IMG/VR virus record: IMGVR_UViG_3300007754_000852
Reading direction: 5' to 3' (one strand)
Length of the DNA: 64,000 nt
Source: a virus
Taxonomy: Duplodnaviria > Caudoviricetes
Both the position numbers and the translations under genes were made by a program. Positions 1 through 37,674 of this stretch are shown one piece after another (the stretch's first letter is position 1; each line of letters begins with the position of its first letter). Under the pieces are notes generated by a model. That model did not search any database and was not told the DNA's origin. It saw nothing but the letters and a program-made list of their open reading frames with translations.

Positions 1-2
1 AC

Positions 3-221
3 GGGTAGATATCGTGGGTCGATAGCATCCCATGTGTACCAGGTATTATCCCTCTTCCCGTCACACCACATCACATGGTATCTCATTCCTCCGTACTCAT
101 GATCATATCTCTCATCAACGATGATACCGTGCAGCCAGTTGAGCGGGTTACCGGCACTATCACCCATGCCAGGATCCCAGATCGCGCAGAGTGAACCGAT
201 CTTGTATAGATCATCATTCAT
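3..221 (-). CDS. Hypothetical SH3/KOW-like small protein, truncated at window edge
   Basis: Hand translation MNDDLYKIGSLCAIWD...GIIVDE...YHVMW runs off the edge; its ATG overlaps the TGA of the upstream gene. Confidence 0.65.
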   Translation of the reverse strand, partial: MNDDLYKIGSLCAIWDPGMGDSAGNPLNWLHGIIVDERYDHEYGGMRYHVMWCDGKRDNTWYTWDAIDPRYLP

Positions 222-448
222 GTTACCACCTGGAGCGCAGTTTCTGCAATGCGTTCCATTAACTTACCGTTTGCCCAGAGAACACTAATGTGACGACCAA
301 ACACCTTCTTTGCCCACGCTGAAGCGTAGATCTCTGAGCTATTTTCATTGTCACGATCTTGGATGTCGACAATTACGCCGAGCTGATCACTCACGCTCTT
401 TCCTCTGACCATCACTCCGCGCTGCTTGACAATGTCACCGATCTTCAT
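218..448 (-). CDS. MKxGDLV-family SH3/KOW-like small protein
   Basis: MKIGDIVKQ...GVIVDI...ISVLW; start moved to ATG 448, just downstream of the promoter at 467-495. Confidence 0.75.
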   Translation of the reverse strand: MKIGDIVKQRGVMVRGKSVSDQLGVIVDIQDRDNENSSEIYASAWAKKVFGRHISVLWANGKLMERIAETALQVVT

Positions 449-466
449 AGCATTATCTCTCTTTTT

Positions 467-495
467 ATTATATCCTGCGACTGGGTCGTTTACAC
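467..495 (-). promoter_or_regulatory. Class I phage promoter GTGTAAA-N16-TATAAT
   Basis: Minus strand GTGTAAA cgacccagtcgcagga TATAAT. Confidence 0.75.
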
Positions 496-693
496 GTGCT
501 GATCCATCACCTCCCACAAACCTTCGTGTGTGCGCATTTGATCATTGTACCTCTCCTCCTCTTCATTGTACACATGTGGGTAGAGTTCAAAGTACACTGT
601 GTCATCGAGTTTCTTCTTGACATCTGACCAATCGAGGCGCCGGATGACGAGAAGATGTTTGTCCTCTATGAAATCACCCGCCATGATCATCAC
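490..693 (-). CDS. Hypothetical protein
   Basis: 67-aa ORF tiling with neighbours (ATGA-type overlap). Confidence 0.55.
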   Translation of the reverse strand: MMIMAGDFIEDKHLLVIRRLDWSDVKKKLDDTVYFELYPHVYNEEEERYNDQMRTHEGLWEVMDQHV

Positions 694-1412
694 TCAACCT
701 TCTGAAGGAAATCAATATTATTCGCCGGGATGTTGAAGATCTCTCCGTTAGAGAACATAGAAACAGTGTGTGGCCAGAGATTCCCTTCAACTGTGACGAT
801 GTCAATGATCATCGCTGTGTTATTACCCCACTTGCACAGATCTCCAGTTCGGAACTCCTCACCATCACTTGTCATAACTGTTCTCTCATCTTTCATCACT
901 GGCATATCTAACTTTCCTATCGCGTGTTTCATCTCGAGGATCACGTCCTGCATGCGGATATCCACGTCAAACACAGCGTTGTCAATGAAGATCAGGTCAT
1001 GCTCCAGACCCCTCCCGACCCCCTTAACATCTGATGTGATGTAACACACATCATGGGTATCACTTGTCTCCGTGTCGCGCATCATGATTACACCGCGAGC
1101 GTACATGAACATCAGCGTGTCGCTTACCTGGTTCAGCCAATCTGTCATTTTGGTCGCAACGTCCTGGACGCTTCCACCGTTGTGACAGATGATGACGGGA
1201 ATCTTCTGGTCGACCTTGATCGCCTTCATCGCCTTGAGGATCATCAGCGTGGTTCGACCGGTCTGGCGTAGTCCAGCGCTGTCAAGAGAACCAGATCGCT
1301 GATTCAATCTGAGCATGTCGTTGAACCACTCACGAGGCGGGGATAGCGATGTGACCTGACCCCTGTTGTGCGTGTTGATCCTGTCCCAGCCGATTCCATC
1401 GATACACCTCAT
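690..1412 (-). CDS. Hypothetical protein with degenerate P-loop and C-terminal SH3/KOW-like domain
   Basis: GLRQTGRTT Walker-A-like motif, LIFIDN Walker-B-like strand, C-terminal FRTGDLC...MIIDI; start at ATG 1412 overlaps the upstream TGA. Confidence 0.6.
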   Translation of the reverse strand: MRCIDGIGWDRINTHNRGQVTSLSPPREWFNDMLRLNQRSGSLDSAGLRQTGRTTLMILKAMKAIKVDQKIPVIICHNGGSVQDVATKMTDWLNQVSDTLMFMYARGVIMMRDTETSDTHDVCYITSDVKGVGRGLEHDLIFIDNAVFDVDIRMQDVILEMKHAIGKLDMPVMKDERTVMTSDGEEFRTGDLCKWGNNTAMIIDIVTVEGNLWPHTVSMFSNGEIFNIPANNIDFLQKVE

Positions 1413-1744
1413 GATGCTCTCACCATTGTCTGTTGCTGACGATCTCTTTGCAGTATCTCTTTGAGAGTTTTCTCTCTCCACGCTGTTGTGCTCGGCGACT
1501 CCCAGTGACCCCAGGGGAAACCCAGGACATCCCAACCCTTGTTTGTCAGCGTTAGCTCCCAATTTGACGTTTGTTTCACCCACTTCCGTTTCATGATCAC
1601 CTCAAGGGTGTTTTTCTTTATCACCCGCTGCGGGTTCTCATGCCTGTGACACAACACGCGGTCAGATCCTGCGAACCAGAACCCACCTAGAGCTATTCGG
1701 GTCAACGCCTGACGCTGGACATCTGTCACCCTTCTCTCACTCAT
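1409..1744 (-). CDS. Hypothetical protein (possible winged-helix)
   Basis: TLEVIMKRKWV...LTLTNKGWDVL resembles a wHTH wing; start taken at second Met. Confidence 0.55.
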   Translation of the reverse strand: MSERRVTDVQRQALTRIALGGFWFAGSDRVLCHRHENPQRVIKKNTLEVIMKRKWVKQTSNWELTLTNKGWDVLGFPWGHWESPSTTAWREKTLKEILQRDRQQQTMVRAS

Positions 1745-1748
1745 GATC

Positions 1749-2966
1749 TCACCCCTTGACACAAACGACAGCGCGGAGTGTATGGAGGACCTCGACCAGA
1801 TCTGATTGTGCCTTCATAACATCCTCGATCGGCTTGTAGCTCATCGGTGTTTCATCGATCACATCCTCATCCTTCCTACACTCCAATCCTTCTGTTGCGC
1901 GAGCGTGATCCTCAACAGAGAACAGCGCCTTCGCCCTGGTCCGTGACATCGCCCTGCCTGCGCCGTGCGAACAGGAGTTGAACGATTCCTTATCTCCCTT
2001 TCCTCTCACAATGAATGAGCTACGTCCCATCGCGCCAGGAATGATTCCCAGGTCACCTCGCTGCGCTCTGACCGCGCCCTTTCTTGTCACCCACACGCTC
2101 CTTCCGAAGTGTTGTTCCTTCGCGATGTAGTTGTGGTGACAGTTAACGACGAAATCACCGTGGGAGAACTCTCGTCGAAGCGCCCATGAGATCGAGTCAA
2201 GAGCACGATCCATCATCAGCTCACGGTTCACCTTCGCGAATCGCTGGGCCCAGTTGACCGCCTGAACATAATCCTTGAAGTGCGGTGACCCCTGTGGGAT
2301 GTACGCGAGATCCTTGTCAGGCAGGTTGATGAACCAGCGCTCCATATCCTTCTTTGCCAGTGAGATGAAGTGGGTTCCGATACGGTTCCCAACACCTCGT
2401 GAACCTGAGTGGAGCATGACCCAAACAGAATCGCCCTCATCGACACACACCTCTATGAAGTGGTTACCTGAACCCAGGCTAGACAGGTGTCGCACGTTAT
2501 TCGACTTCGCGAGGCGCGGGTGTTTATCGCAGATCACATCGAAATCATCCTTGAGGGTGTTCCACTTACGTGCGACGTCGTCAGGGATATCTCTCCACGC
2601 ACCCTCGTCACGTGAACCTCCGTGGTGGGTCCTGCCATGCGGGATCATCCGTTCAATCCGAGAGCGCACCTTCTGCATGTTGTCAGGCAAGTCGCTCGCT
2701 GTCAGAGATGTGCGAACTGCCATCATCCCACATCCCAAGTCGACGCCGACAGCGGCGGGAACGATCGCGTTAAGTGTGGGAATGACACTCCCGACGCAGG
2801 CGCCTTTCCCCATGTGCGCGTCGGGCATCACCGCGATGTGACGATGGATGAACGGCAGGGATGACAACCTTCTCAGCTGATCCCTGGCCTGATCCTCAAC
2901 GTGAACTCCCCTGGTCCACATCTTAACCAGACCAGGGGAGTTATCTAGCACATCGTAGCTTGACAT
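1749..2966 (-). CDS. rtcB: RtcB RNA 3'-phosphate/5'-OH ligase
   Basis: MPDAHxG, GVDLGCG, LGSGNHF, HSGSRG, CHHNY, RKGA, SHGAGR motifs; 405 aa. Confidence 0.97.
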   Translation of the reverse strand: MSSYDVLDNSPGLVKMWTRGVHVEDQARDQLRRLSSLPFIHRHIAVMPDAHMGKGACVGSVIPTLNAIVPAAVGVDLGCGMMAVRTSLTASDLPDNMQKVRSRIERMIPHGRTHHGGSRDEGAWRDIPDDVARKWNTLKDDFDVICDKHPRLAKSNNVRHLSSLGSGNHFIEVCVDEGDSVWVMLHSGSRGVGNRIGTHFISLAKKDMERWFINLPDKDLAYIPQGSPHFKDYVQAVNWAQRFAKVNRELMMDRALDSISWALRREFSHGDFVVNCHHNYIAKEQHFGRSVWVTRKGAVRAQRGDLGIIPGAMGRSSFIVRGKGDKESFNSCSHGAGRAMSRTRAKALFSVEDHARATEGLECRKDEDVIDETPMSYKPIEDVMKAQSDLVEVLHTLRAVVCVKG

Positions 2967-2986
2967 GACGCGTTTCCTTTTTATCT

Positions 2987-3015
2987 ATTATACCCTGCCC
3001 GTGATCCATTTACAC
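2987..3015 (-). promoter_or_regulatory. Class I promoter upstream of rtcB
   Basis: GTGTAAA tggatcacgggcaggg TATAAT, then AAGGA SD and ATG. Confidence 0.8.
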
Positions 3016-3052
3016 GCGACATTATGACAATTGAGGAAAACGCGTGATCACG

Positions 3053-3559
3053 CTACCAGCGATACATGAGCGCCGTGTTCGGCAAGGGCATGATGCCGAA
3101 CCCGTCAGAACCGTATCTGAATCCGAGGGGTAGCTCGAACCTGAATAGCATGTTGTCCCAGAACGTGACTTGCATCCCGACACCTGGACCTGTCACCGCG
3201 CCCCAACCCTCATCGGTCGTTTCCTCGCAGTCGTCAGATTTCGTGTCCTCGTTCCACACGCACTCCTCATACGTGTCACGCCAGAACCCACCGGCGAGGC
3301 CAAGCGAGCCGTATAGCCCGACCTTTCCGTTCTCGTGGAAGTTTCTCTTTAGGTTCACCCCACCAAAAACTCGACCGCCATCGCTCTCGTCCCATACCGG
3401 TAATCCGGTTATCTGGTAACCCCACACGTCATTGTCATGTGAATATGATAGGCCGATACCATAGGTCCCACCCGCTGCAAATCCTAAGCTATTTGTCGTT
3501 TCCGCGTTAGCGGGTGTCACTAGAAGTAATCCAGCGAGAATTGTTATCATCTTAATCAT
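3053..3559 (-). CDS. Secreted outer-membrane beta-barrel-like protein
   Basis: Signal peptide ending ANA, Gly/aromatic-rich alternating strands, terminal YRW aromatic signature. Confidence 0.6.
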   Translation of the reverse strand: MIKMITILAGLLLVTPANAETTNSLGFAAGGTYGIGLSYSHDNDVWGYQITGLPVWDESDGGRVFGGVNLKRNFHENGKVGLYGSLGLAGGFWRDTYEECVWNEDTKSDDCEETTDEGWGAVTGPGVGMQVTFWDNMLFRFELPLGFRYGSDGFGIMPLPNTALMYRW

Positions 3560-3592
3560 TCGTGTTCTCCTTATGAACGATCCTCACATTAT

Positions 3593-3850
3593 CTACAGCG
3601 CGGGTATCAGCGTAAAACAATCTGTGTGTAACCACTTCAGCTCGCCCTCGAATAGCACCTCGTGGTGCCAGTGGGTGATCGCGTTACCTTTCATGTCGAA
3701 CATCCTGGAGTGAAGAACGTATCGTGAGTTTATCTCGATCAGATTGACACCTCGGTCGACAGGCTTAAACGTGTCGATGAACATCGCGACGCCTATGTCG
3801 TCACCATCCTGATCAATGATGCGAACCAGGTCACCCTCCTCTCTCATCAT
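3593..3850 (-). CDS. MKxGDLV-family small protein
   Basis: MMREEGDLVRI...VLFEGELKWLH. Confidence 0.7.
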   Translation of the reverse strand: MMREEGDLVRIIDQDGDDIGVAMFIDTFKPVDRGVNLIEINSRYVLHSRMFDMKGNAITHWHHEVLFEGELKWLHTDCFTLIPAL

Positions 3851-4080
3851 ATCACCTCAAGAAAGCGCTCATTGTAGTTATACATCTCTCCGTTGTCAGC
3901 GAGGACAAGCCAGGTGTCGACGTAGATGATCTCACGCAACGCAATATTCTCTCTTATCTCTGATATGTTCTTGTACTCTGGGATCACATCTCCCGGGCGG
4001 AACTCTATGATCATGCAGATGCGACCGCTGTTATTATCGTTGGGTAGCCCGCTCACCCTGACTAGATCACCGGGTTTCAT
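3847..4080 (-). CDS. MKxGDLV-family small protein
   Basis: MKPGDLVRVS...ERFLEVI. Confidence 0.75.
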   Translation of the reverse strand: MKPGDLVRVSGLPNDNNSGRICMIIEFRPGDVIPEYKNISEIRENIALREIIYVDTWLVLADNGEMYNYNERFLEVI

Positions 4081-4345
4081 CGCTCTCGCTCAATATCTCG
4101 ACGTGATACACATAATTTCTCTTTATATCTCCCACCGAGGAGTAGCTGAACACCTGTGACGACTGTGACAGGTCGATCCTTCTTATGTGACCTGTGTCAT
4201 CCAGGATGTTGACAACACCGGGGTCCTCGTCGTCGTCAGTGACCAGGTCAACCACCAGACCCTTGCTCACCTCGGTTCCGCCGCCAGTTCTGTAATCTGT
4301 GATCTGTATCACCCTTATCAGGTCACCGATGTTTATTCTTTCCAC
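4067..4345 (-). CDS. MKxGDLV-family small protein
   Basis: INIGDLIRV...KGLVVDL. Confidence 0.7.
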   Translation of the reverse strand: MERINIGDLIRVIQITDYRTGGGTEVSKGLVVDLVTDDDEDPGVVNILDDTGHIRRIDLSQSSQVFSYSSVGDIKRNYVYHVEILSESDETR

Positions 4346-4557
4346 TCTTCGTCCGCGTGTGAGATGACCGTGATGTGTGACCTGTGGAACCTAAGCGTTG
4401 CGCCTGTCCCAGGGAACATGATTCTAAAGATGTCATCATATCTCTCAGGCGAGATAGATTCGATGATACCCATCCTGTTGCTGGGTATATCATCCTGATG
4501 AACGACAATGTCGTTCAGAACGACATCTGACACCCTGACTAGATCACCTGGTTTCAC
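4333..4557 (-). CDS. MKxGDLV-family small protein
   Basis: MKPGDLVRVS...MGIIESI. Confidence 0.75.
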   Translation of the reverse strand: MKPGDLVRVSDVVLNDIVVHQDDIPSNRMGIIESISPERYDDIFRIMFPGTGATLRFHRSHITVISHADEEWKE

Positions 4558-4883
4558 TCACAGTTCCTCCTTGTTCTTCTCACCAACATCGCACAATCAA
4601 CTGCAGATTGATACAGTTCCTGTTTCATCCTGACGACGTCAACCTCGAGGTTGAGGTTTCTCTCAAGTAGCTCGGCGCACTCCTCGTCGACGTCCGGCAG
4701 GTTATCAATGATCTGACGATGTTCCTCTGACGCCTTCTCCAATCTTGCCCTATAGTCCTGATGTAGCTCGGCGATCGTGTCATCCTTCGCCTGTGACACG
4801 AGGAAACCCCAGAGGATCGCACCTAGCAACATTCCTGAGAGGTAATCGCTCCACTCGCTGAGGATCTTGAATAGCCTTCTCAT
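4554..4883 (-). CDS. Membrane-anchored coiled-coil protein
   Basis: One N-terminal hydrophobic helix followed by heptad-rich region. Confidence 0.6.
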   Translation of the reverse strand: MRRLFKILSEWSDYLSGMLLGAILWGFLVSQAKDDTIAELHQDYRARLEKASEEHRQIIDNLPDVDEECAELLERNLNLEVDVVRMKQELYQSAVDCAMLVRRTRRNCE

Positions 4884-4887
4884 GTTC

Positions 4888-5079
4888 TTATCGTACCTCT
4901 AGCGATGACAATGTATCTCTTAGGATCCGCATCATTCCGTGTGACATGACGTACTCTGCGTTTCTTATTTTTACCCGAACTCCGAGCGCGCTCTCGTCGA
5001 TGATGACAACTGTTTCAGATCCTGTCAATCCCATCTCTAGCAGGCGCTTACGTGCGGATCTGTTGACGCCACTGCGCAT
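4888..5079 (-). CDS. FeoA-like SH3 domain protein
   Basis: RKRLLEMGL...VVIIDESALGVRVKIRNAEY matches the FeoA pattern. Confidence 0.55.
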   Translation of the reverse strand: MRSGVNRSARKRLLEMGLTGSETVVIIDESALGVRVKIRNAEYVMSHGMMRILRDTLSSLEVR

Positions 5080-5257
5080 CGTTGATCCTCCTTACATCCC
5101 ACCAGATCCTAGCATATGTCAGAACAGATCCGTCGATTAGCACCTCAGGTCCATCGTCAATCTCATCATAACCCATGTACATCCCGACATACATCGGAAC
5201 CAATTCTGACCGCTCCATATCCCTTGGGTACACACCAACCAGGTCACCCGCCTTCAT
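5048..5257 (-). CDS. MKxGDLV-family small protein
   Basis: MKAGDLVGV. Confidence 0.7.
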   Translation of the reverse strand: MKAGDLVGVYPRDMERSELVPMYVGMYMGYDEIDDGPEVLIDGSVLTYARIWWDVRRINDAQWRQQIRT

Positions 5258-5523
5258 GAGATCACCTCGCTTGTTTCTCTCACGTAATCCTCATATGCCA
5301 GGCCTGACGACCTGTAATCGCTGTAGAACTCATTTCTCGTGCAGAAGGGAACATCATCATCCTCATCCCAGTACTCGTCATTGAACTCTCCGTATGAGAG
5401 AACGTGCTTGTCTGAGTTACCGTGACAGTGATCACACATGTTCCACGAGTGGCTGATTCTGAACTCCACGTTTCTCTCTGTTCCACAGATCCTGCAATAC
5501 ATGATACCTCCTATGTGTTTCAT
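5254..5523 (-). CDS. Small zinc-finger protein
   Basis: CRIC...CDHC. Confidence 0.65.
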   Translation of the reverse strand: MKHIGGIMYCRICGTERNVEFRISHSWNMCDHCHGNSDKHVLSYGEFNDEYWDEDDDVPFCTRNEFYSDYRSSGLAYEDYVRETSEVIS

Positions 5524-5729
5524 TATACCTTATCCCCAGCAGGGTTACACGAAATAATCCTGTCAGGAACACGGACGATCTCTGTCCTCTCAACCTCGTG
5601 GACACCCTCATCACCGAACGACACGACATACGACGTGACATCATGCCTGACGATCACCTCAACGATGATGCCGAACGGCGGCGGGCGGTCAACCAATCCG
5701 ATGTACTGAACCAGGTCACCCTTCGTCAT
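5523..5729 (-). CDS. MKxGDLV-family small protein
   Basis: MTKGDLVQY...GIIVEV. Confidence 0.75.
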   Translation of the reverse strand: MTKGDLVQYIGLVDRPPPFGIIVEVIVRHDVTSYVVSFGDEGVHEVERTEIVRVPDRIISCNPAGDKV

Positions 5730-6013
5730 GTTAACAACTCCAATTCATCCTCAAATAATGTGAACAAACCGTTTCTATACGAGACCTCCCAGTAATCACC
5801 GTGCCTAACGATGTTACTTTCGATTATCTCAATCTCCTTCTCGATGTCAGCGCAAACGATGTTTCCCTCAAAGTTTGACATGGTCATCAGCGTTCTCCTG
5901 AAATCCTCGAGGGTGTATCTATACACGAGGATACCGATGTCATCTCTATTGACACCAGTGGGAGGATGATGAGGGTTGTTACCAACCCACCTGACGGGAT
6001 CACCCACCTTCAC
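5726..6013 (-). CDS. MKxGDLV-family small protein
   Basis: MKVGDPVRW...LFEDELELL. Confidence 0.75.
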   Translation of the reverse strand: MKVGDPVRWVGNNPHHPPTGVNRDDIGILVYRYTLEDFRRTLMTMSNFEGNIVCADIEKEIEIIESNIVRHGDYWEVSYRNGLFTLFEDELELLT

Positions 6014-6221
6014 TGATCACCTCAAGATGTTTTATTCCTAAGGTCCAGCACTCAGCACTGTACTCGTCTGAGTATGTCATGATAGTTACCACGGAATTTT
6101 CGCCCTTCTCGCTCACAAAGATCGAATTGTCACTGTCGATGACAACACCCACCTTGCCCTCGAGGTAGTTAGGAAGGTACATCTCATCGAGAGAGATCAT
6201 GACAAGATCACCTGATTTCAC
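6000..6221 (-). CDS. MKxGDLV-family small protein
   Basis: MKSGDLVMI...HLEVISE. Confidence 0.75.
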   Translation of the reverse strand: MKSGDLVMISLDEMYLPNYLEGKVGVVIDSDNSIFVSEKGENSVVTIMTYSDEYSAECWTLGIKHLEVISEGG

Positions 6222-6946
6222 GATAGATCAACGTCTAGATGTGTGTTAAACATCTGGGCACTTGGCTCATTAGGGTATCCTCTCGGATTACAGATCAGCC
6301 TTGTCACTCCGAGAACGTCATCGAATCCCGTGTGAGTGTGACCGAAGAACCAGAACGCTGGCTTGCGATCAAGGATGAGATCAGTGTGGTCACAGACAAA
6401 GAATCTGTTCAGCATGGAGTTCTTCCACTCCCTAGCCACACAGAACTCACTGGGAAGGTGATGCGTGATGACGATGTCACCCTCATCCAGGTTCTCCTCA
6501 AGGTGTCGCTGGAACGCCTCCTGCTGATCATACACCCAGGGCTTGAATCCGGAGATGTGATTGAAATCACCCAAGTTCCGCTCGTAGTGAATATTTAGCG
6601 GGTCATCTCGGAACCAGCCTGTTGACCCATGGAATGTTCTCCCGTCGATCTCAACTGTGGGATTCTCTGGGTGGAGGTAGTGAAGATTGTTATTCTTGTC
6701 ACTGGCCGCGGACAGGATGTCGTGTACCTTATCCGGTGACGACATGTAATACACGTGATTCCCTGGCACATAGATGACCTCGCTGAACCTCTCACAGAAT
6801 ATGTCGAGGGTTCTGTCAATGTCCAGACACGAGTCGATGTCACCCGCTAGAATGAGAAGATCACAACCGCTGTCAAGCCCGTCAACGAACTCACGTCGAT
6901 AACCGGTGTGCTCAAGGTGTAGATCTGATAGGATCCTGACTTTCAC
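6218..6946 (-). CDS. Calcineurin-like metallophosphoesterase
   Basis: SDLHLE, AGDI, PGNH, THH, GHTH motifs. Confidence 0.93.
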   Translation of the reverse strand: MKVRILSDLHLEHTGYRREFVDGLDSGCDLLILAGDIDSCLDIDRTLDIFCERFSEVIYVPGNHVYYMSSPDKVHDILSAASDKNNNLHYLHPENPTVEIDGRTFHGSTGWFRDDPLNIHYERNLGDFNHISGFKPWVYDQQEAFQRHLEENLDEGDIVITHHLPSEFCVAREWKNSMLNRFFVCDHTDLILDRKPAFWFFGHTHTGFDDVLGVTRLICNPRGYPNEPSAQMFNTHLDVDLS

Positions 6947-7070
6947 TTTTTATCTCTCCAAAGATAGGTGATTCCATACACTGCTTGACAGGTTTGCAAT
7001 ACATCATGACCAGAACAACGCTGACGATGATCAGAACGACAAAACCATCCTCGAGGCGCCTTCTCATCAC

Positions 7071-7394
7071 TCACTCCTCATCTTCTGCTTCATTGCAAGG
7101 ATCACAAATGCCGCAACATGCACAACAGGGTGCGCCGCATCGCTCACACTCACCAGGATCAGAGGTACCATCGCTAAGCTCAAGAATGATGTCACACGGC
7201 TCGTTATCATTTAGCCCGTAGAAGAAACACCCAACGATGTAAGTTGGGCGGCCAACATGGTAGATCACGTGATTCCACCATCGCCAGTCGCCGACTGGCT
7301 TATCGAATAGATCCCACCACCTGAATGAGAACTCACACAGGACGTAGCCGATCAACTCACAGATCTCGTATCTAGCCTTTGATAACAGTGACAT
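7071..7394 (-). CDS. Hypothetical protein, Cys-rich C-terminus
   Basis: CERCGAPCCACCGICDPC. Confidence 0.55.
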   Translation of the reverse strand: MSLLSKARYEICELIGYVLCEFSFRWWDLFDKPVGDWRWWNHVIYHVGRPTYIVGCFFYGLNDNEPCDIILELSDGTSDPGECERCGAPCCACCGICDPCNEAEDEE

Positions 7395-7405
7395 CTGTCA
7401 CCTCC

Positions 7406-7786
7406 CTATTTTTCTATCTTACCACGCCCTGTGTCATAGTACACGTCGCACATCATCTCTAGCTCCGCACCGATGAGAGCGATCGCCTCTCTCGTCGCGC
7501 CTGTCACACCTGAGGCGTCGAACTCATCCTGCAACATTATCACCTCATCTGTCAGCCACGAAGTTAGCTCATCATCTGTTAGCCGATCTGTCATCTCATG
7601 AACGACGCTTGCATATCTGTCGTGGACCTCAGAAAATGTAACACGAAACTGATCATCAGAGTCCGCGCAGGCGTTGACAACGTGCGATAGTCGACGTTCC
7701 CTGTACTCTGTCAGAGCCACGCGGATGTTATCGGCATTTCTCACCTGACGCGGTAGGGATGCCTTTCCTCGGTAGAACTCATTCAC
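7406..7786 (-). CDS. Hypothetical protein
   Basis: 126-aa helical ORF with GAGGTG SD. Confidence 0.6.
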   Translation of the reverse strand: MNEFYRGKASLPRQVRNADNIRVALTEYRERRLSHVVNACADSDDQFRVTFSEVHDRYASVVHEMTDRLTDDELTSWLTDEVIMLQDEFDASGVTGATREAIALIGAELEMMCDVYYDTGRGKIEK

Positions 7787-7970
7787 TGATCACCTCGCAT
7801 TGTGTTAAAGAATATGGCTCAATAGGGTTTCCATCCACCAGACATGCTACCCAATCTAAACCTGGGTTAGCATCATCAATATCATCAAATGACGTAAAGA
7901 AAACTAATCCAATCTTATGTCCACAAGGATCAGCAGGGTAGTCAATCTTTACGAGATCACCCTCTTTCAT
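7779..7970 (-). CDS. MKxGDLV-family small protein
   Basis: MKEGDLVKI...CEVISE; start at internal Met with GGAGG SD. Confidence 0.75.
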   Translation of the reverse strand: MKEGDLVKIDYPADPCGHKIGLVFFTSFDDIDDANPGLDWVACLVDGNPIEPYSLTQCEVISE

Positions 7971-8191
7971 TCTTCCTCCACGATCTTCACCCAGCAATCC
8001 TTCACCCACGTCAACATCTTTCCATCGACATCATGATCAGAGCAGAGAACATTAAGATTTCTCGTGCCATGAATGCCAACCCATCTCTCCTCTACAACAA
8101 CGCCGAAGATGCCGGTGGAATGCTGGACAGGTGACAGGATCTCAACAAGATCTCCGATCTTGGCCCATGATCCGTGATTGTTCCTGTACAT
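7967..8191 (-). CDS. MKxGDLV-family small protein (possibly leaderless)
   Basis: AKIGDLVEI...GVVVEE; ATG 8191 lies 6 nt after the TATAAT. Confidence 0.7.
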   Translation of the reverse strand: MYRNNHGSWAKIGDLVEILSPVQHSTGIFGVVVEERWVGIHGTRNLNVLCSDHDVDGKMLTWVKDCWVKIVEEE

Positions 8192-9164: not shown

Positions 9165-9411
9165 CTTCTTCCGCCTCTTTTCCCATCTCTCTCACATCGA
9201 CAACCAGACCGCCCATGTGCTTGCTCTGATAATATCCTGAAAAGTGATCCCAGAGAAGCTGCTGAAGTGCCTCATGGATCCCAGCAGTGTCGTCATACAC
9301 CCAGGTGTCAATGTACTCTGAGTCATTCTCATTGGGAGTTAGCACCTCCCATCCGTTACGGACGCGCCGAATAAGGACATCACCCTTTCTTATCTCTACC
9401 GTTTTACTCAT
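9157..9411 (-). CDS. Hypothetical protein
   Basis: Tiling ORF, IRKGDV near N-terminus. Confidence 0.6.
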   Translation of the reverse strand: MSKTVEIRKGDVLIRRVRNGWEVLTPNENDSEYIDTWVYDDTAGIHEALQQLLWDHFSGYYQSKHMGGLVVDVREMGKEAEEDE

Positions 9412-11361: not shown

Positions 11362-11562
11362 TTAAAATGGAATATCAGGTGATGTGTTAATATATTGAAT
11401 GTCTGATAGTCTGATAATTGATCCGTCTTCAAATTTAAACATTGACGGCTCTCCGCTTTTTGAACTTTTCTTTAGCGTCGCAAGCAATTTATGATATTCA
11501 CTGGTCTTTATGTGCTTAGAAATATGATGAGCTCTGCTATGAACGTACATGTCAATTATCAT
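11362..11562 (-). CDS. Hypothetical protein
   Basis: Tiling ORF. Confidence 0.55.
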   Translation of the reverse strand: MIIDMYVHSRAHHISKHIKTSEYHKLLATLKKSSKSGEPSMFKFEDGSIIRLSDIQYINTSPDIPF

Positions 11563-11894
11563 TTCTTTCTCTTCTTTTTAGATGATTTTTTTATTAAATC
11601 TTGTTCAATTTCTTTCATTACACAAAGAGAATTACATGCTTTCCATATCTCCTGACTATATCTTATGACATCTGAATTGCAACTATAGTATCCCCTATGT
11701 CCCTCATTTTTTATCTTTGATTTAAGATTTTCTAAGCATTTATGCAATGATTCTATCTTTAGGCTTAGCAAGTCTAAATAAGCTTCTCTTGAGAGATAGA
11801 TCTTCTCTATCATATCCTTCTCGGTCTTTTTCATTGTCTTGTCTTCTTTTCGATATGAAAAATTAATTAAATCATTTCCATATCTTTTAGCCAT
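11559..11894 (-). CDS. Hypothetical protein
   Basis: Helical, basic C-terminal tail; start uncertain. Confidence 0.55.
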   Translation of the reverse strand: MAKRYGNDLINFSYRKEDKTMKKTEKDMIEKIYLSREAYLDLLSLKIESLHKCLENLKSKIKNEGHRGYYSCNSDVIRYSQEIWKACNSLCVMKEIEQDLIKKSSKKKRKK

Positions 11895-13345
11895 TTAGTT
11901 ATTCTATCATTAACTTTAGGATCGTATTCTCCTTCTGGCCAGCCTCCATGAGAGCTTGGTTGATCTAGCATTAAATTCTTAACAGTACCCTTTTCATAAG
12001 ATTCATCTGGATGATAGCCTCTGTATTTTTTCTTTTTTCCTGATTCAGCAATAATCAGATGTCGTATCATGTAGACTAGCTGATCTTTGTTACTTTCATC
12101 TAATCGAGTTCTGTTTGGATTATCTAAGCCAAATCGATTAGACAGCGCATCAACAGTTATCCAGACGTCGTTATAATTCATATCGTGATGAGATGCTAGT
12201 TTTGAATAATCCATCTCATCATTCCATATGATCTGAGCTATATCTCTATCATCTACTACGTCACCTGCAAAATTATCAACTGTATATTGTTGTCGAGGTG
12301 GTAGCTCTATGCCTGCTTCTTTTCTCTTCTTATACACTCTTGACATAACAACGCTTAAGGCAGAGTTCATTGTGTCTTGTGCTGCCTCATCAAGCATTTT
12401 AAATTCATCGATTGCAGTTTTTATCATCAGCGCTGATGCAACAAGCCCTAACCCACCAGACAAATAACTTCCCGTTGCTCCCATACCTGCTGTTGCTGAG
12501 ATTCCCATAGCTGTCAACCCTTTAAGAACAAGTATTCCAACGGGTATTGCAGCTAGACACCCTAAAACGACCCCTGTAAATGTAGCAGTCTTTGCCATCA
12601 TTTTCTGAAACGGTGTTGCTATCTCAAGCTGTTTATCAGTTGCTGCATCATCCAACCAAGACCAACTATCAACCGCACCCTCTACAGCACTACCGCCGAC
12701 ATCTCCAACACCATCAGATATTGCGTTTCCAATACCGTCTGTGATGAAAGCAAGATCGTCTGGTGAAAGTGCTCTTTGAAGTTTTTCAGCGCCAAATACA
12801 AGCTTAATATAGTCGTCAATTGCTGCTCCCGCAAGAATCAAAATTACATTGTCTAAAAAACCAAAGACGAACTGATATGCGAAATCTTTTGCATATCTTA
12901 TTAGTAGCTGTCGAAATGTCGGTGGAACTGGTTTTCCAATAATTCTTTCAACTCTTTCAGTATAGTCTGATATCAGCTTAGTGTTTGTATAAGATGACTT
13001 GTATCTCCTAAGAGCCTTTTTCGCTGATGTTTCTTTTATCTCCCTAAGTTTGTCAGGTGATAAGTCATCTTGACTTTCAATTCCTGGGTTGTCTTCTATG
13101 AACTGTCTTAATTCATCACGAATAGCATTCACATAAAGAGAGGAAAAATCACGAACAGCTCTTTCTCTCATTGCAATTCGAAGTCTTTCATCAATCTCAT
13201 TTCCATGCTCTATGGCACTTGACACGACCTCTATAGATCGATCATCTCCAGCGTGAACGTCACCATACAGATTTTGGCCCATTCCAATTTCGTTAATCAG
13301 CTCTTCTTTTATTATTTTCTTAAGAGACTTCTTAGAAAGTTTCAC
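11867..13345 (-). CDS. TMEM65-like membrane domain protein with phage 'LKKIIKEE' N-terminal motif
   Basis: FVFGFLDNVILILAG, GIGNAISD, GVVLGC match the TMEM65 pattern; GTG start KLSKKSLKKIIKEE. Confidence 0.7.
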   Translation of the reverse strand: MKLSKKSLKKIIKEELINEIGMGQNLYGDVHAGDDRSIEVVSSAIEHGNEIDERLRIAMRERAVRDFSSLYVNAIRDELRQFIEDNPGIESQDDLSPDKLREIKETSAKKALRRYKSSYTNTKLISDYTERVERIIGKPVPPTFRQLLIRYAKDFAYQFVFGFLDNVILILAGAAIDDYIKLVFGAEKLQRALSPDDLAFITDGIGNAISDGVGDVGGSAVEGAVDSWSWLDDAATDKQLEIATPFQKMMAKTATFTGVVLGCLAAIPVGILVLKGLTAMGISATAGMGATGSYLSGGLGLVASALMIKTAIDEFKMLDEAAQDTMNSALSVVMSRVYKKRKEAGIELPPRQQYTVDNFAGDVVDDRDIAQIIWNDEMDYSKLASHHDMNYNDVWITVDALSNRFGLDNPNRTRLDESNKDQLVYMIRHLIIAESGKKKKYRGYHPDESYEKGTVKNLMLDQPSSHGGWPEGEYDPKVNDRITKWLKDMEMI

Positions 13346-13346
13346 T

Positions 13347-13715
13347 CTATTGCCCTTGTGAATCTTCATCTAAAAAATATATTGTTGCATTTCTATCTGA
13401 GCATATTGGTATTAGGTCTGATTCTGACGGGAGCGGAGCAAACGATGGAGATACAAAAAATGAATATGTTGTCCACTCACGTAAGACTTGTTCATCATCA
13501 GAAAGTTTTTCATTAAAACTGACACATCTTACTTTAAACGCTCCTCTGCTTTGAGAATACCCATAATATACTGTGTCACATCCTGCCACGTCCATGTTAA
13601 CAAGAAGAGAATCTACACACATGCTCTGGCTTGGTTCAAAGTTCTTTCCGGCATAATGTAATTTTACTGAACAGCCGCATAATAAAACTAATGATGCTAC
13701 AAGTGGCTTTATCAT
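13347..13715 (-). CDS. Putative lipoprotein
   Basis: Hydrophobic leader with LLCGC lipobox. Confidence 0.65.
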   Translation of the reverse strand: MIKPLVASLVLLCGCSVKLHYAGKNFEPSQSMCVDSLLVNMDVAGCDTVYYGYSQSRGAFKVRCVSFNEKLSDDEQVLREWTTYSFFVSPSFAPLPSESDLIPICSDRNATIYFLDEDSQGQ

Positions 13716-13733: not shown

Positions 13734-14072
13734 CTATTTCTTAACTAATTTAATGTTTTGCCTAAATACGTGATATACGCTGCCATGAACAAGAATTTCA
13801 TACACGTCATACATGCTCCACCTGCCTGCCCTGCTTAGTCTGCTAGGCCTTCCGACGCATCTGATAACTGTTGCGACGTCTCCGTCTCTTACAACTATTG
13901 ACTTTCCAAAAAAATCACTGTGTGACGGATAATTTGTAAGATCAATTCTTTCATAAATTTTTAACCCACCATCTTTAGTGGGTGTTCCTGTTGAAAAACC
14001 GTCAGGTGAGTTCTCTATTACAATAACAACAATATCACCTTTGACTATATCTCTATCACCCATCTGTCTCAT
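13734..14072 (-). CDS. SH3/KOW-like protein
   Basis: IVKGDIVV...YEILV. Confidence 0.65.
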   Translation of the reverse strand: MRQMGDRDIVKGDIVVIVIENSPDGFSTGTPTKDGGLKIYERIDLTNYPSHSDFFGKSIVVRDGDVATVIRCVGRPSRLSRAGRWSMYDVYEILVHGSVYHVFRQNIKLVKK

Positions 14073-14497
14073 TTTGAAATCGTCGGAAGGCCTCTAACAA
14101 TGTCACCGATGGAAATTTTGTTTGAATCAAACCATCCATCATTGACTTCAAGCGCATACATCGCAGGGCCACTAGACCATACACGTTCATCAGACTGTGG
14201 TGACATTTTTTCTATATTTAATATTTCACCTGACTCATTGAGGTATGCAATTGACAGCGGAATGTACGTATTTTTCATCCAAAATGCTCTTCTGCTAGAA
14301 TCTGGAAAGATAAAAAGCATGCCCTCATTTCTCTTTAGATCTGCTCTATTCATTAGGCCTACATCTCGTGAGACGTCTGTGTCAGCAACCTCAACATATA
14401 GCGGCTGAGAATTCACATATATTTCTATCTTGTGTGAATTACGACCATCTAGCATTCTTCTAATCGTCTGTCTAAGCTGGTTTTCTGTTATTAGCAT
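14069..14497 (-). CDS. DUF192-family protein with 'QLRQTIRR' N-terminal motif
   Basis: VEVADT...GLM...GMLFIF...FWMKNTYIPLSIAY...YALEVNDGW. Confidence 0.88.
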   Translation of the reverse strand: MLITENQLRQTIRRMLDGRNSHKIEIYVNSQPLYVEVADTDVSRDVGLMNRADLKRNEGMLFIFPDSSRRAFWMKNTYIPLSIAYLNESGEILNIEKMSPQSDERVWSSGPAMYALEVNDGWFDSNKISIGDIVRGLPTISK

Positions 14498-14821: not shown

Positions 14822-16414
14822 ATGATCAATATTCGTAAGAGCATTATTGTTTCACTGCTCGCAGTCACTTCCATTAGTTGTATTGACTATGAGCTTTCAA
14901 ACAATCCTACTAAGATGCCTGATATACGTGTGTCACCAGACAGCGTTGACTTTGGTACACTTTTATCTGGTAACGACGTCGGTGTGCAAGAGATAGAAAT
15001 AGAAAACATCGGAACAGATGATTTAAATGTTGAAAACGTCTATCTTAAATTTTCAACAGGTGTCCACACAATTACCTCAATTAGTGATAAAAGCATAGAC
15101 CCTGGAGATAAAACAGAGTTTTTCATTTATTATGAACCAAGTACATATTCATCAGATCAAAATGTTATCTTAATTGAATCAAATGATCCTACTGACAAAG
15201 TTGTTGAAGTTCCAATTAATGGGTCTGGTGATGCACCCATAATACACGTTCAGCCAGAATATTATGACTTTGGAAACGTCATCGTTGGATGTGATGATTC
15301 TTTACCTGTCACAATTTCTAACATTGGAAATGCTGATCTTGAAATTAGCTCAATTAACTACTTTATATCTCATCCAGTTAATCTTGACATAGACAAGAAT
15401 GAACAAGTGAATGGACTCTTTCCGTGGATTATTCCGCCAGGAAACTATGCTGAGATGTTTATCGACTATGCACCGCTAGATGATATCTTTGATGCAGGAT
15501 ATATTGACATTTCATCAAACGATCCTCAGACACCTGTCAAGACTGTTGAGCAGGGTGGTGACGGTGACTATTTTGCATATGTCATAGACGAGTTTGAGCA
15601 AAAAGAAGACATAATGTCTGATGTTTTATTTGTCATAGACAACTCATGTTCAATGAGCGGCCATCAAACAAACCTTAAGAATAATTTTGATTCATTTATA
15701 AATGTATTTTCGACGTCGGGTGCGGATTATCAAATTGCATTTATAACAACAGATAGCGCAGAAATAATTGATAATGCTATTATTACTCCATCAACACAAA
15801 ACCCCATCCTGGCAGTCAATGACATCATTGATAGCATAGGAATATCTGGAAATCCAGTAGAGAAAGGTCTAAAATATTCATATGAAGCAACACTGGCGGG
15901 AGCTTCTGCAGGTCCAGGCAGTCAGTTTATGAGAAATAATGCAAGACTAGTTGTAATTTATGTGTCAGATGAACCTGATGCATCTAGCAATTACTCTCCG
16001 TGGATGTCTCCTTCTGATTACTCTTCACATCTAAGAAGCCTGAAACCTTCGAACAACTTGATTATTGCGCACGCTGTTGCAGGTGACTATCCCGGTGGTT
16101 GCTCTGGAAACGGCTATGCACAATTTGGTGACGGATATTATGACGTTGTGAATGACTTTAACGGAACATTTATGTCAATATGTGCAACTGACTGGGGTGT
16201 TCAAATGGATGCCCTGGCAAGAGATTCAATTTCATCATTTAGCTTTTCTCTAAGCAAAACACCAATAGAGGATACAATAGAGGTTTATGTTGACGGAGTA
16301 GAGTCATTTGCGTGGTCATACAATCAATCTATAAATTCAGTTGTGTTTAGTGTATCACCTCCTGAGGGAAGCAATATTGAAATAACATATGCAATATACG
16401 GTGACTGTCAATGA
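14822..16414 (+). CDS. Lipoprotein with two Ig-like (choice-of-anchor D/ASH-type) domains and a vWA domain
   Basis: Lipobox TSISC; VDFG/YDFG Ig repeats with SNDP; MIDAS DNSCSM and YVSDEPD; start at ATG 14822. Confidence 0.85.
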   Translation: MINIRKSIIVSLLAVTSISCIDYELSNNPTKMPDIRVSPDSVDFGTLLSGNDVGVQEIEIENIGTDDLNVENVYLKFSTGVHTITSISDKSIDPGDKTEFFIYYEPSTYSSDQNVILIESNDPTDKVVEVPINGSGDAPIIHVQPEYYDFGNVIVGCDDSLPVTISNIGNADLEISSINYFISHPVNLDIDKNEQVNGLFPWIIPPGNYAEMFIDYAPLDDIFDAGYIDISSNDPQTPVKTVEQGGDGDYFAYVIDEFEQKEDIMSDVLFVIDNSCSMSGHQTNLKNNFDSFINVFSTSGADYQIAFITTDSAEIIDNAIITPSTQNPILAVNDIIDSIGISGNPVEKGLKYSYEATLAGASAGPGSQFMRNNARLVVIYVSDEPDASSNYSPWMSPSDYSSHLRSLKPSNNLIIAHAVAGDYPGGCSGNGYAQFGDGYYDVVNDFNGTFMSICATDWGVQMDALARDSISSFSFSLSKTPIEDTIEVYVDGVESFAWSYNQSINSVVFSVSPPEGSNIEITYAIYGDCQ

Positions 16415-30888: not shown

Positions 30889-31302
30889 TTATTTTACCCA
30901 CACAATCATTGAATCAGCTATAGCGGGATCATCACCAAATTCTGCGTCTTGCTCTTTTGCCCATGAAATAGCCTTAAGTTCGTCTCGTTCGCGATGGCCA
31001 TCAAACATAGCAGCAAGAACATCTCCCCTTAGGCCAGGAAAGTTGACAGAGTCTGCCAAGGCTTCATATGCACTTTCAGGTGTAACATTAAACTTAGCAC
31101 CCTGATCAATCACTGACTGCCAATCACCGCCCTCTAAGGCACTTTTCATCGTTCCATGCTTAACTGTATTATGTCTGCTAGGGAGGGCTGCATGAACAAG
31201 TCGAGCTGCCGCCTCAAGCTTATCATCACCGGCTTGTTCAAATAGATGTCTTTCTAATTCTTCTCTAATGACCTGTCGAAGCTGGCTTTTTGTAATTCGC
31301 AT
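30889..31302 (-). CDS. Phage protein with MRITKSQLRQVIREE N-terminal motif
   Basis: Motif typical of large-phage head-associated proteins; ATATTTA upstream. Confidence 0.75.
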   Translation of the reverse strand: MRITKSQLRQVIREELERHLFEQAGDDKLEAAARLVHAALPSRHNTVKHGTMKSALEGGDWQSVIDQGAKFNVTPESAYEALADSVNFPGLRGDVLAAMFDGHRERDELKAISWAKEQDAEFGDDPAIADSMIVWVK

Positions 31303-37230: not shown

Positions 37231-37674
37231 TTACTTAAATCCAATTCCAGGAAATGCGAGATTTATCAATCCCTTTCTGCTGTTGGAGGGCTGATTTTCA
37301 CCATACAGCCACTTACTATCACTTTCAAGCATTCCAAGATCTTCAAGAACAGTTCTTATCTCTCCTCGAACTGCCTCGCGAAGTCGTGACTCTTCAAGAT
37401 TTTGTCTTCTCATGCTTAAAACGGCCTCTCTTAGTTCATTCTCATCAACCTCAAGAACCTCATCTTCATCAATAGATTCACCTTCTTCTAAATCACCCTC
37501 TTCATCAGATTGTAACTCATTTAATTGTTCAGCCTGATCTGGGTCATCGACACCAGGGTCATCATGTCTGCTTCTATTCTGCGCTTCTGTTAGCATCTCA
37601 GACTCAGAAGATGGTAATCCTGCTAACTTAGAAAGCCTATTTACGTCAAAGTTCATATTAAATTTCTCCAGCAT
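37231..37674 (-). CDS. Acidic putative head-associated protein
   Basis: RLSKLAGL...MLTE; LREAVRGEI; ATATTTA immediately upstream. Confidence 0.65.
   Translation of the reverse strand: MLEKFNMNFDVNRLSKLAGLPSSESEMLTEAQNRSRHDDPGVDDPDQAEQLNELQSDEEGDLEEGESIDEDEVLEVDENELREAVLSMRRQNLEESRLREAVRGEIRTVLEDLGMLESDSKWLYGENQPSNSRKGLINLAFPGIGFK

Follow-up and report, generated by a model that had tools for sequence, protein, structure and literature searches.

TMEM65 has only recently been established as a mitochondrial Na+/Ca2+ exchanger. The purified mammalian protein is a homodimer that performs Na+/Li+-dependent Ca2+ exchange; it resides in the mitochondrial inner membrane, with its N-terminus on the matrix side in eukaryotes, and the activity of human TMEM65 requires D132, D167, G170, and E178 (Vetralla et al.; PMC12830682, PMC13254257). 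Bare TMEM65 genes of phages are already on record at the level of annotation: NVP2275O_332, a 94-amino-acid gene of the cultured 349-kb Vibrio phage 2.275.O._10N.286.54.E11 (MG592671.1), is described in GenBank as "TMhelix containing protein; pfam:PF10507". Our literature search found no paper discussing phage TMEM65 genes. A second described system with a bearing on this work is the capsid-targeting sequence of phage T4, a tag of 10 residues in which positions 4 and 7 govern targeting and positions 8 and 10 (I-x-E) govern cutting; it is carried by the internal proteins IPI-III, and the T4 protein Alt is trimmed at both ends (PMC9026906). Here we describe a gene in a 64,000-nucleotide stretch of viral DNA (Duplodnaviria; Caudoviricetes; IMG/VR record IMGVR_UViG_3300007754_000852), hereafter the window, which encodes an enlarged and tagged variant of TMEM65. 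Its combination with an extra helix, two soluble domains, and a fused tagged module is specific to this phage group.

The initial annotation had recognized the TMEM65 pattern in the central hydrophobic region of the protein, and profile searches bear this out. The Pfam TMEM65 family (PF10507) matched residues 168-272 with 38 bits (E = 1.8e-9; profile positions 8-99 of 109), compared with a curated gathering cut-off of 25 bits, and the score rose to 40.8 bits with the core alone; residues are numbered throughout as in the 500-amino-acid form P0001, counted from an in-frame ATG at 13369. The three motifs of the family are present as FGFLDN (169-174), GIGNAISDGVG (212-222), and GVVLGC (266-271). 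A pre-helix stretch, GKPxPPT..Q..RYAK, leads into the first core helix, TM1 (163-187, containing FGFLD173N174), which is followed by TM2 (206-230; GN215xxSD219xxG222...E230) and TM3 (258-283; G266xxxG270CxxA274xxxG278). F169, G170, D173, N174, G181, G214, N215, S218, D219, G222, G266, G270, and C271 are invariant over 20 diverse members that span long phage forms, minimal forms of 110 amino acids, and eukaryote-like proteins with presequences. In a broader alignment (A3) drawn from the hits of the profile search described below, all 46 diverse relatives belong to PF10507, and two of them also have EF-hands.

The residues on which the human protein depends are retained as well. The mutagenesis primers in Vetralla et al. 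give the contexts FGFLD132N, VAG140THIE144, and GNLVSD167LAG170, and these contexts place the human residues on D173, D219, G222, and E230 of the phage protein. All four activity residues are thus kept (human/phage: D132/D173, D167/D219, G170/G222, and E178/E230), with equal spacing within each helix. G140 likewise corresponds to G181, and an acidic residue is kept at E144/D185. The small-residue spacing of the TM3 glycine zipper (G266-x3-G270-x3-A274-x3-G278) is preserved, with Ala at its third position in the long phage form. Taken together, the profile match, the motifs, and the retained human activity residues make it almost certain that the gene is a real, phage-borne member of the TMEM65 family. 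The VIT family, which the initial annotation had named beside TMEM65 as a target for the profile search, received no support: no Pfam row for VIT1/CCC1 (PF01988) appeared even at E ≤ 10, and no VIT1 chain was among the rows of the two structure comparisons with PDB chains described below. The other Pfam rows, FTR1 (E = 0.028) and S_100 (E = 0.16), were both below cut-off.

Beyond the TMEM65 core, the protein has a layered architecture, whose coordinates are collected in Table 1 together with those of the other tagged genes in the window.

Table 1. Coordinates in the window of the TMEM65-like gene, its parts, and the other genes carrying the shared tag
Feature	Position	Strand	Remarks
Whole gene	11867..13345	-	GTG start at 13345, 492 amino acids; stop codon 11867-11869
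N-terminal shared tag, residues 9-23, VKLSKKSLKKIIKEE	13301..13345	-	30-34 bits by position matrix
Conserved helical N-domain, ~residues 43-145	12935..13243	-	Predicted cytoplasmic; many invariant columns; only in the long phage form
TMEM65 core, residues 146-287	12509..12934	-	From PF10507, hydropathy, alignment, and core model
Fourth hydrophobic, Gly/Ala-rich helix, ~residues 298-320	12410..12478	-	From hydropathy, alignment, and core-model helix 161-190 (residues 300-329)
Conserved soluble C-domain, residues 321-425, ending NPNRTxL423-D-E425	12095..12409	-	Invariant W382, E385, M386, D387, N417, P418, N419, and others
Decayed internal tag, residues 426-442, ...KDQLVYMIRHLIIAE, ending IIAE	12044..12094	-	In place of the SRWxKLAGI and stop of homologues
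Fused C-terminal module, residues 443-500 and stop; YEKGTVKNLMLD, HGGWPEG, KWLKDM	11867..12043	-	A free-standing 81-amino-acid tagged gene in relatives
Second tagged open reading frame, strong copy MRITKSQLRQVIREE	30889..31302	-	Remainder unrelated; no Pfam family
DUF192 protein, weak tag copy MLITENQLRQTIRR	14069..14497	-	Three genes upstream in the same gene string; weak tag kept in L001 and L003

We regard the GTG at 13345 as the better start codon. It lies 1 nucleotide past the TAG of the upstream gene and is preceded by a Shine-Dalgarno-like AAGGG 8-12 nucleotides upstream; the database protein P0002, called from this GTG, has 492 amino acids and is 100% identical; and this start puts the leader at the extreme N-terminus, matching all homologues. 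The alternative ATG at 13369, which gives the 500-amino-acid open reading frame (ORF) 11867-13369 on the minus strand (P0001), would make the gene overlap the one before it and lacks a Shine-Dalgarno-like sequence.

Structure prediction had been suggested as a check on the TMEM65 assignment. A model of residues 140-330 built from a 46-sequence alignment was confident, with a predicted local distance difference test (pLDDT) of 84, a predicted template modelling score of 0.71, and values of 84-96 in the motif-bearing helices, and it contained four long helices (residues 152-192, 203-234, 253-287, and 300-329). Hydropathy analysis detected TM1, TM3, and, more weakly, the fourth helix; the Kyte-Doolittle means of the two strongly hydrophobic helices are 1.9 and 2.4. 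The fourth helix occurs only in long phage forms, and the minimal and eukaryote-like rows of the alignment stop soon after TM3. In the full-length AlphaFold model the helical N-domain was predicted with confidence (pLDDT 70-84 over residues 60-120), as was the C-domain (pLDDT 76-83 over about residues 330-420). The extra fourth helix would bring the C-terminus back to the side of the membrane on which the N-terminus lies; with the N-terminus inside, both large domains and both termini are therefore predicted to be cytoplasmic.

Structural and sequence searches produced few informative neighbors. A family-profile sequence search of the PDB gave no match; Foldseek with the core model returned no PDB row below E = 1.7; and the best Z of VIA-align against 48,161 chains was 7, which is background for helical models. 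In a viral structure library, the top rows were uncharacterized giant-virus proteins and a 94-amino-acid protein, the BFVD entry A0A2I7SAH6, which among structural matches covered the core model best (32% identity, target TM 0.70). The whole protein had no significant PHROG family and no structural family among the PHROGs; a weak match (E = 0.055) was to a "membrane protein" in the moron, auxiliary metabolic gene, and host-takeover category. The whole long form found no match by tblastn in 50,697 phage records, and a core-region search among shorter proteins gave none at E ≤ 0.001.

Relatives came from the metagenome scan only; scans of the IMG/VR and GTDB genomes found none. Twenty-one database clusters match the protein, every one from marine metagenomes, and 19 have PF10507, the remaining two (P0021 and P0022) matching only the fused C-terminal module, with no Pfam family. 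About 20 of the relatives are full-length; one lies on the 382-kb metagenome contig Ga0080013_1000002, and one matching database record is mislabelled as a Pacearchaeota bin. Twelve homologues were aligned; their identity to the window protein is 49-65%, with a mean column identity of 47%. Because more than 100 positions are invariant among them despite this divergence, selection appears to act on the whole protein and not on the core alone. When a profile of these 12 full-length homologues was run on 1.84 billion representative proteins, it retrieved 51 at E ≤ 0.001, eight of them at E ≤ 1e-30; those beyond the latter group are mostly core-only matches. One profile match, P0048, was dropped as spurious, being a repetitive Ig-like surface protein.

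The shorter TMEM65-family proteins from this profile search, mostly of about 270-390 amino acids, include carriers of another conserved motif, (L)MENWRxY. It is N-terminal in P0030, P0034, P0038, P0040, P0042, P0044, P0047, P0049, P0056, and P0057 and lies at the C-terminus in P0035 and P0062. Terminal tags of more than one kind may therefore accompany TMEM65 cores. In P0041 (789 amino acids), the TMEM65 core is accompanied by a C-terminal region near the ArdA antirestriction family (24.4 bits, compared with a cut-off of 27).

What the phage protein does can be approached by analogy with its mitochondrial relative. We propose a four-helix protein of the host's inner membrane, whose first three helices would form the TMEM65 core with its essential polar and acidic residues. 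It would pair as a dimer in the cytoplasmic membrane and move cations, and the N- and C-domains, both on the cytoplasmic side, could regulate the core or dock partners. Seawater is high in Na+ and contains about 10 mM Ca2+. In a marine host, Na+ inflow may then drive Ca2+ or another divalent cation out of the infected cell. EF-hands in two family members and an EF-hand loop in a tagged neighbor of the TMEM65-like gene in locus L005 are in keeping with a role in ion handling. The initial annotation had proposed that the protein alters host ion flux, which we may reasonably infer from the family. That the phage protein transports ions is, in our estimate, somewhat probable, and we likewise lean, by a little more than an even balance, toward the explanation as a whole, a tagged, dimeric inner-membrane cation exchanger with added domains.

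Several observations weigh against this exchanger model. Exchange is known for the purified mammalian protein only, and ion specificity is not readable from the sequence. The full-length AlphaFold model is poor in the membrane part (pLDDT 54), which leaves arrangement and topology as inferences, and the PDB sequence, Foldseek, and VIA-align searches yielded no solved structure with which the core could be compared. The loop between TM1 and TM2 is 11 residues longer than that of human TMEM65, and Ala takes the third glycine position in the zipper of TM3. Finally, capsid-loading tags, if that is what the terminal sequences discussed below are, are hard to square with a membrane-integral cargo.

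The core might, alternatively, no longer transport ions and be a membrane anchor or pore-former that serves in lysis timing, superinfection exclusion, or as an assembly tether, with the large soluble domains as the functional parts. Glycine zippers such as that of TM3 are a motif known from channel-forming proteins (PMC12830682, PMC13254257), and the weak PHROG match to a membrane protein in the host-takeover category points the same way. Strict conservation of buried Asp, Asn, and Glu residues, which are essential for transport in human TMEM65, would not be expected of a mere anchor, and we consider a non-transporting core highly improbable.

The second main feature of the protein is its leader, KLSKKSLKKIIKEE, which is one copy of a tag with the family consensus MKITxxQLRxIIxEE, ending in I-x-E. 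A position matrix built from the loci was run over every position, in six frames, of the window and nine related loci. It gave 29 matches of at least 25 bits in 150 kb and none in reversed sequences. Twenty-five of the 29 are at start codons, no more than 26 codons past an in-frame stop; the match at L005:4306 is a GTG 41 codons in that is possibly a start, and the other three are clearly internal to long multi-part proteins. I-x-E is found in every copy, here as I20-K21-E22, a statement about the presence of the motif only. The bodies of the tagged proteins have no mutual similarity, and a Pfam search of nine other tagged proteins found no domain. Besides the TMEM65-like gene, the only window ORFs with the tag are the strong and the weak carrier in Table 1; across the loci, the TMEM65-like gene usually lies among other tagged genes. 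The initial annotation had held that the leader is common to putative virion proteins. It is indeed shared by unrelated proteins, as the 29 matches and the empty reversed control attest, whereas no tagged protein had a known virion role in the PHROGs and Pfam searches.

Second MKIT copies also occur inside long ORFs, namely L005:8803-9972 (at 9310), L003:11101-12312 (at 11446), and L005:14201-16018 (at 15305), which resemble strings of tagged units without stop codons. In the tagged neighbor of the TMEM65-like gene in L005, a canonical EF-hand loop, DVNDDGELDADE (DxNxDGxLxxxE), comes after the internal tag.

The C-terminus is no less distinctive. Most homologues end in [LI]-x-E-S-R-W-x-K-L-A-G-I, that is, in an SRWxKLAGI peptide followed by the stop codon. 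The window protein and its closest relative have, in place of this peptide, a decayed tag and 58 further residues. P0071 and P0072 are 81-amino-acid genes that consist of the tag and the 58-residue module alone. Since the module stands free behind a tag in other phages and a decayed tag marks the junction here, we conclude from these sequences that a small tagged gene has joined the TMEM65-like gene at its 3′ end by fusion. Among the proteins examined for the module elsewhere (P0073, P0021, and P0022), it is C-terminal in two tagged proteins, an HExxH protein and one of 208 amino acids, and N-terminal in a protein of 305 amino acids. It has no Pfam family, and, judged by these varied sequence contexts, it appears to be a mobile unit.

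Likenesses to the C-terminal peptide turned up in two unrelated places. The 147-amino-acid window ORF 37231-37674 (minus strand) has an RxxKLAG motif near its N-terminus (NRLSKLAGL), and an unrelated ORF of L007 (102-464) has DRWSRIAGL inside it. RW/L-x-K-L-A-G-I/L thus looks like a second shared short motif.

The tag and the C-terminal peptide together invite comparison with the T4 capsid-targeting sequence and Alt. Read in this way, the N-terminal tag would work as a capsid-targeting sequence, and L/I-x-E with the SRWxKLAGI peptide would be the counterpart of the C-terminal propeptide of Alt. The protein would be virion cargo that enters the prohead, is cut there by the head protease, leaves the capsid together with the DNA, and reaches the host membrane before any phage gene is expressed. 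The tag is on many unrelated proteins and nearly only at gene starts, and its I-x-E end corresponds to residues 8 and 10 of the T4 tag, on which processing depends. In every homologue L/I-x-E stands right before the conserved C-terminal peptide, as would suit a protein cut, like T4 Alt, at both ends. Tags are kept at fusion joints (residues 426-442 here, P0003, L005:9310, L003:11446, and L005:15305), as expected of a cleavable polyprotein; the gene is commonly amid other tagged genes; and shorter TMEM65 proteins have ENWRxY, a different N-terminal motif. Capsid loading followed by trimming by a T4-type head protease is our leading guess for the tags. Other points speak against it. Neither the window nor the related loci have a head gene or head protease; the T4 tag is known from soluble cargo, but two helices of the present protein are strongly hydrophobic; three relatives have the gene next to the replicative DnaE polymerase and not beside head genes; and no PHROG structural family matched. 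In the 64-kb window itself, PHROGs searches with 20 window proteins returned no structural gene and did not confirm a T4-like nature, and no gp21-type prohead protease was found. We therefore hold virion cargo to be an unlikely explanation of the protein, and its delivery in virions, one option of the initial annotation and argued here from the T4 analogy, to be similarly doubtful. The fuller proposal, in which giant marine phages would pack a TMEM65-type exchanger into the capsid by way of end tags that can be removed and deliver it to the host membrane along with the DNA, is more doubtful again.

The chaperone genes of the window suggest another role for the tag. It could be a handle that binds, for example, phage Hsp70 or GroEL for folding or membrane insertion of a TMEM65-like protein made during infection. 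The window encodes a full-length Hsp70 (834 bits) and a Cpn60; the Leu/Ile core of the tag with its basic flanks seems, on general knowledge, to resemble DnaK-binding peptides; and the neighborhood is a module of envelope proteins rather than a head module. Such a handle would explain neither why L/I-x-E is conserved at both ends nor why fusion joints keep internal tags, and we rate it very unlikely.

The TMEM65-like gene occupies two kinds of setting. In the window, L001, and L003 it lies within a block of envelope-protein genes, its neighbors here being a lipoprotein, an Ig-vWA lipoprotein, a TlpA-like protein, and a trypsin-like protein; in L002, L004, and L008 it directly follows the DnaE polymerase. 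Because two genome positions are occupied in related phages, the gene appears, from gene order, to have moved relative to an otherwise syntenic backbone. The window is gene-dense, and nearly all of its transcription is from the minus strand. Its genes include those for a DnaE-type polymerase with at most about 31% identity to that of any sequenced phage, Hsp70, Cpn60, RtcB, a sigma factor, a dCMP deaminase, and five tRNAs, and we read it as part of the genome of an uncultured giant marine phage.

Other features of the window touch the gene less directly. The G+C content is about 0.50 in positions 1-8000 compared with about 0.38-0.40 in positions 10000-64000. The G+C-rich first 8 kb includes RtcB, a phosphoesterase, and many small MKxGDLV-type ORFs, and L001 keeps the gene order across the boundary. 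In its listed form, the downstream ORF 11559-11894 (minus strand) shares 28 nucleotides with the end of the TMEM65-like gene; since its homologues in L001 and L003 have 93 amino acids, the second Met, near 11834, is probably its true start. A AATAAATA box immediately ahead of the 14497 start codon was considered as a late promoter and rejected, because it is too close to the start and too AT-rich.

The phage proteins may prove useful in their own right. The profile search of the PDB finds no TMEM65 structure, and phage homologues that keep every known required residue offer studies of structure and transport a set of relatives that are simple and can be expressed; they also give a view of the family outside eukaryotes. 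If the protein is a transporter, it is a case of a phage tampering with the cation balance of its host in a sea rich in Na+ and Ca2+. If it is delivered in the capsid, the phage would control Ca2+ and Na+ flux from the instant of infection, with an integral membrane transporter as virion cargo. Should a tagged transporter trimmed in virions be found, the case for predicting injected phage proteins from such tags would become much stronger; otherwise, the capsid-loading reading would need revision.

Set beside the described systems, the MKIT tag is like the T4 tag in being a short, amphipathic N-terminal sequence that starts with MK, ends in I-x-E, and stands on unrelated proteins, and the phage TMEM65 protein is like T4 Alt in having a second conserved L/I-x-E before a short C-terminal peptide. 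The MKIT tag differs in its length (15 residues compared with 10), in having no sequence identity with the T4 tag, and in the integral membrane nature of the cargo described here. Minimal TMEM65 proteins of phages and prokaryotes (about 90-130 amino acids) have the three-helix core in common with the protein described here and are without tags, soluble domains, and fourth helix. Eukaryotic TMEM65 shares with the phage form the three-helix core with FGFLDN, GNxxSDxxG, and GxxxGC, and the PPT..Q stretch before TM1. In place of the presequence and the three-helix, N-in/C-out arrangement of a eukaryotic orthologue, we found a phage tag, a helical N-domain, and a fourth helix. Unlike its eukaryotic counterpart, then, the phage form is without a mitochondrial presequence and a poly-acidic tail, and it has instead a fourth helix, N- and C-domains of about 100 amino acids each, terminal tags, and a fused 58-amino-acid module.

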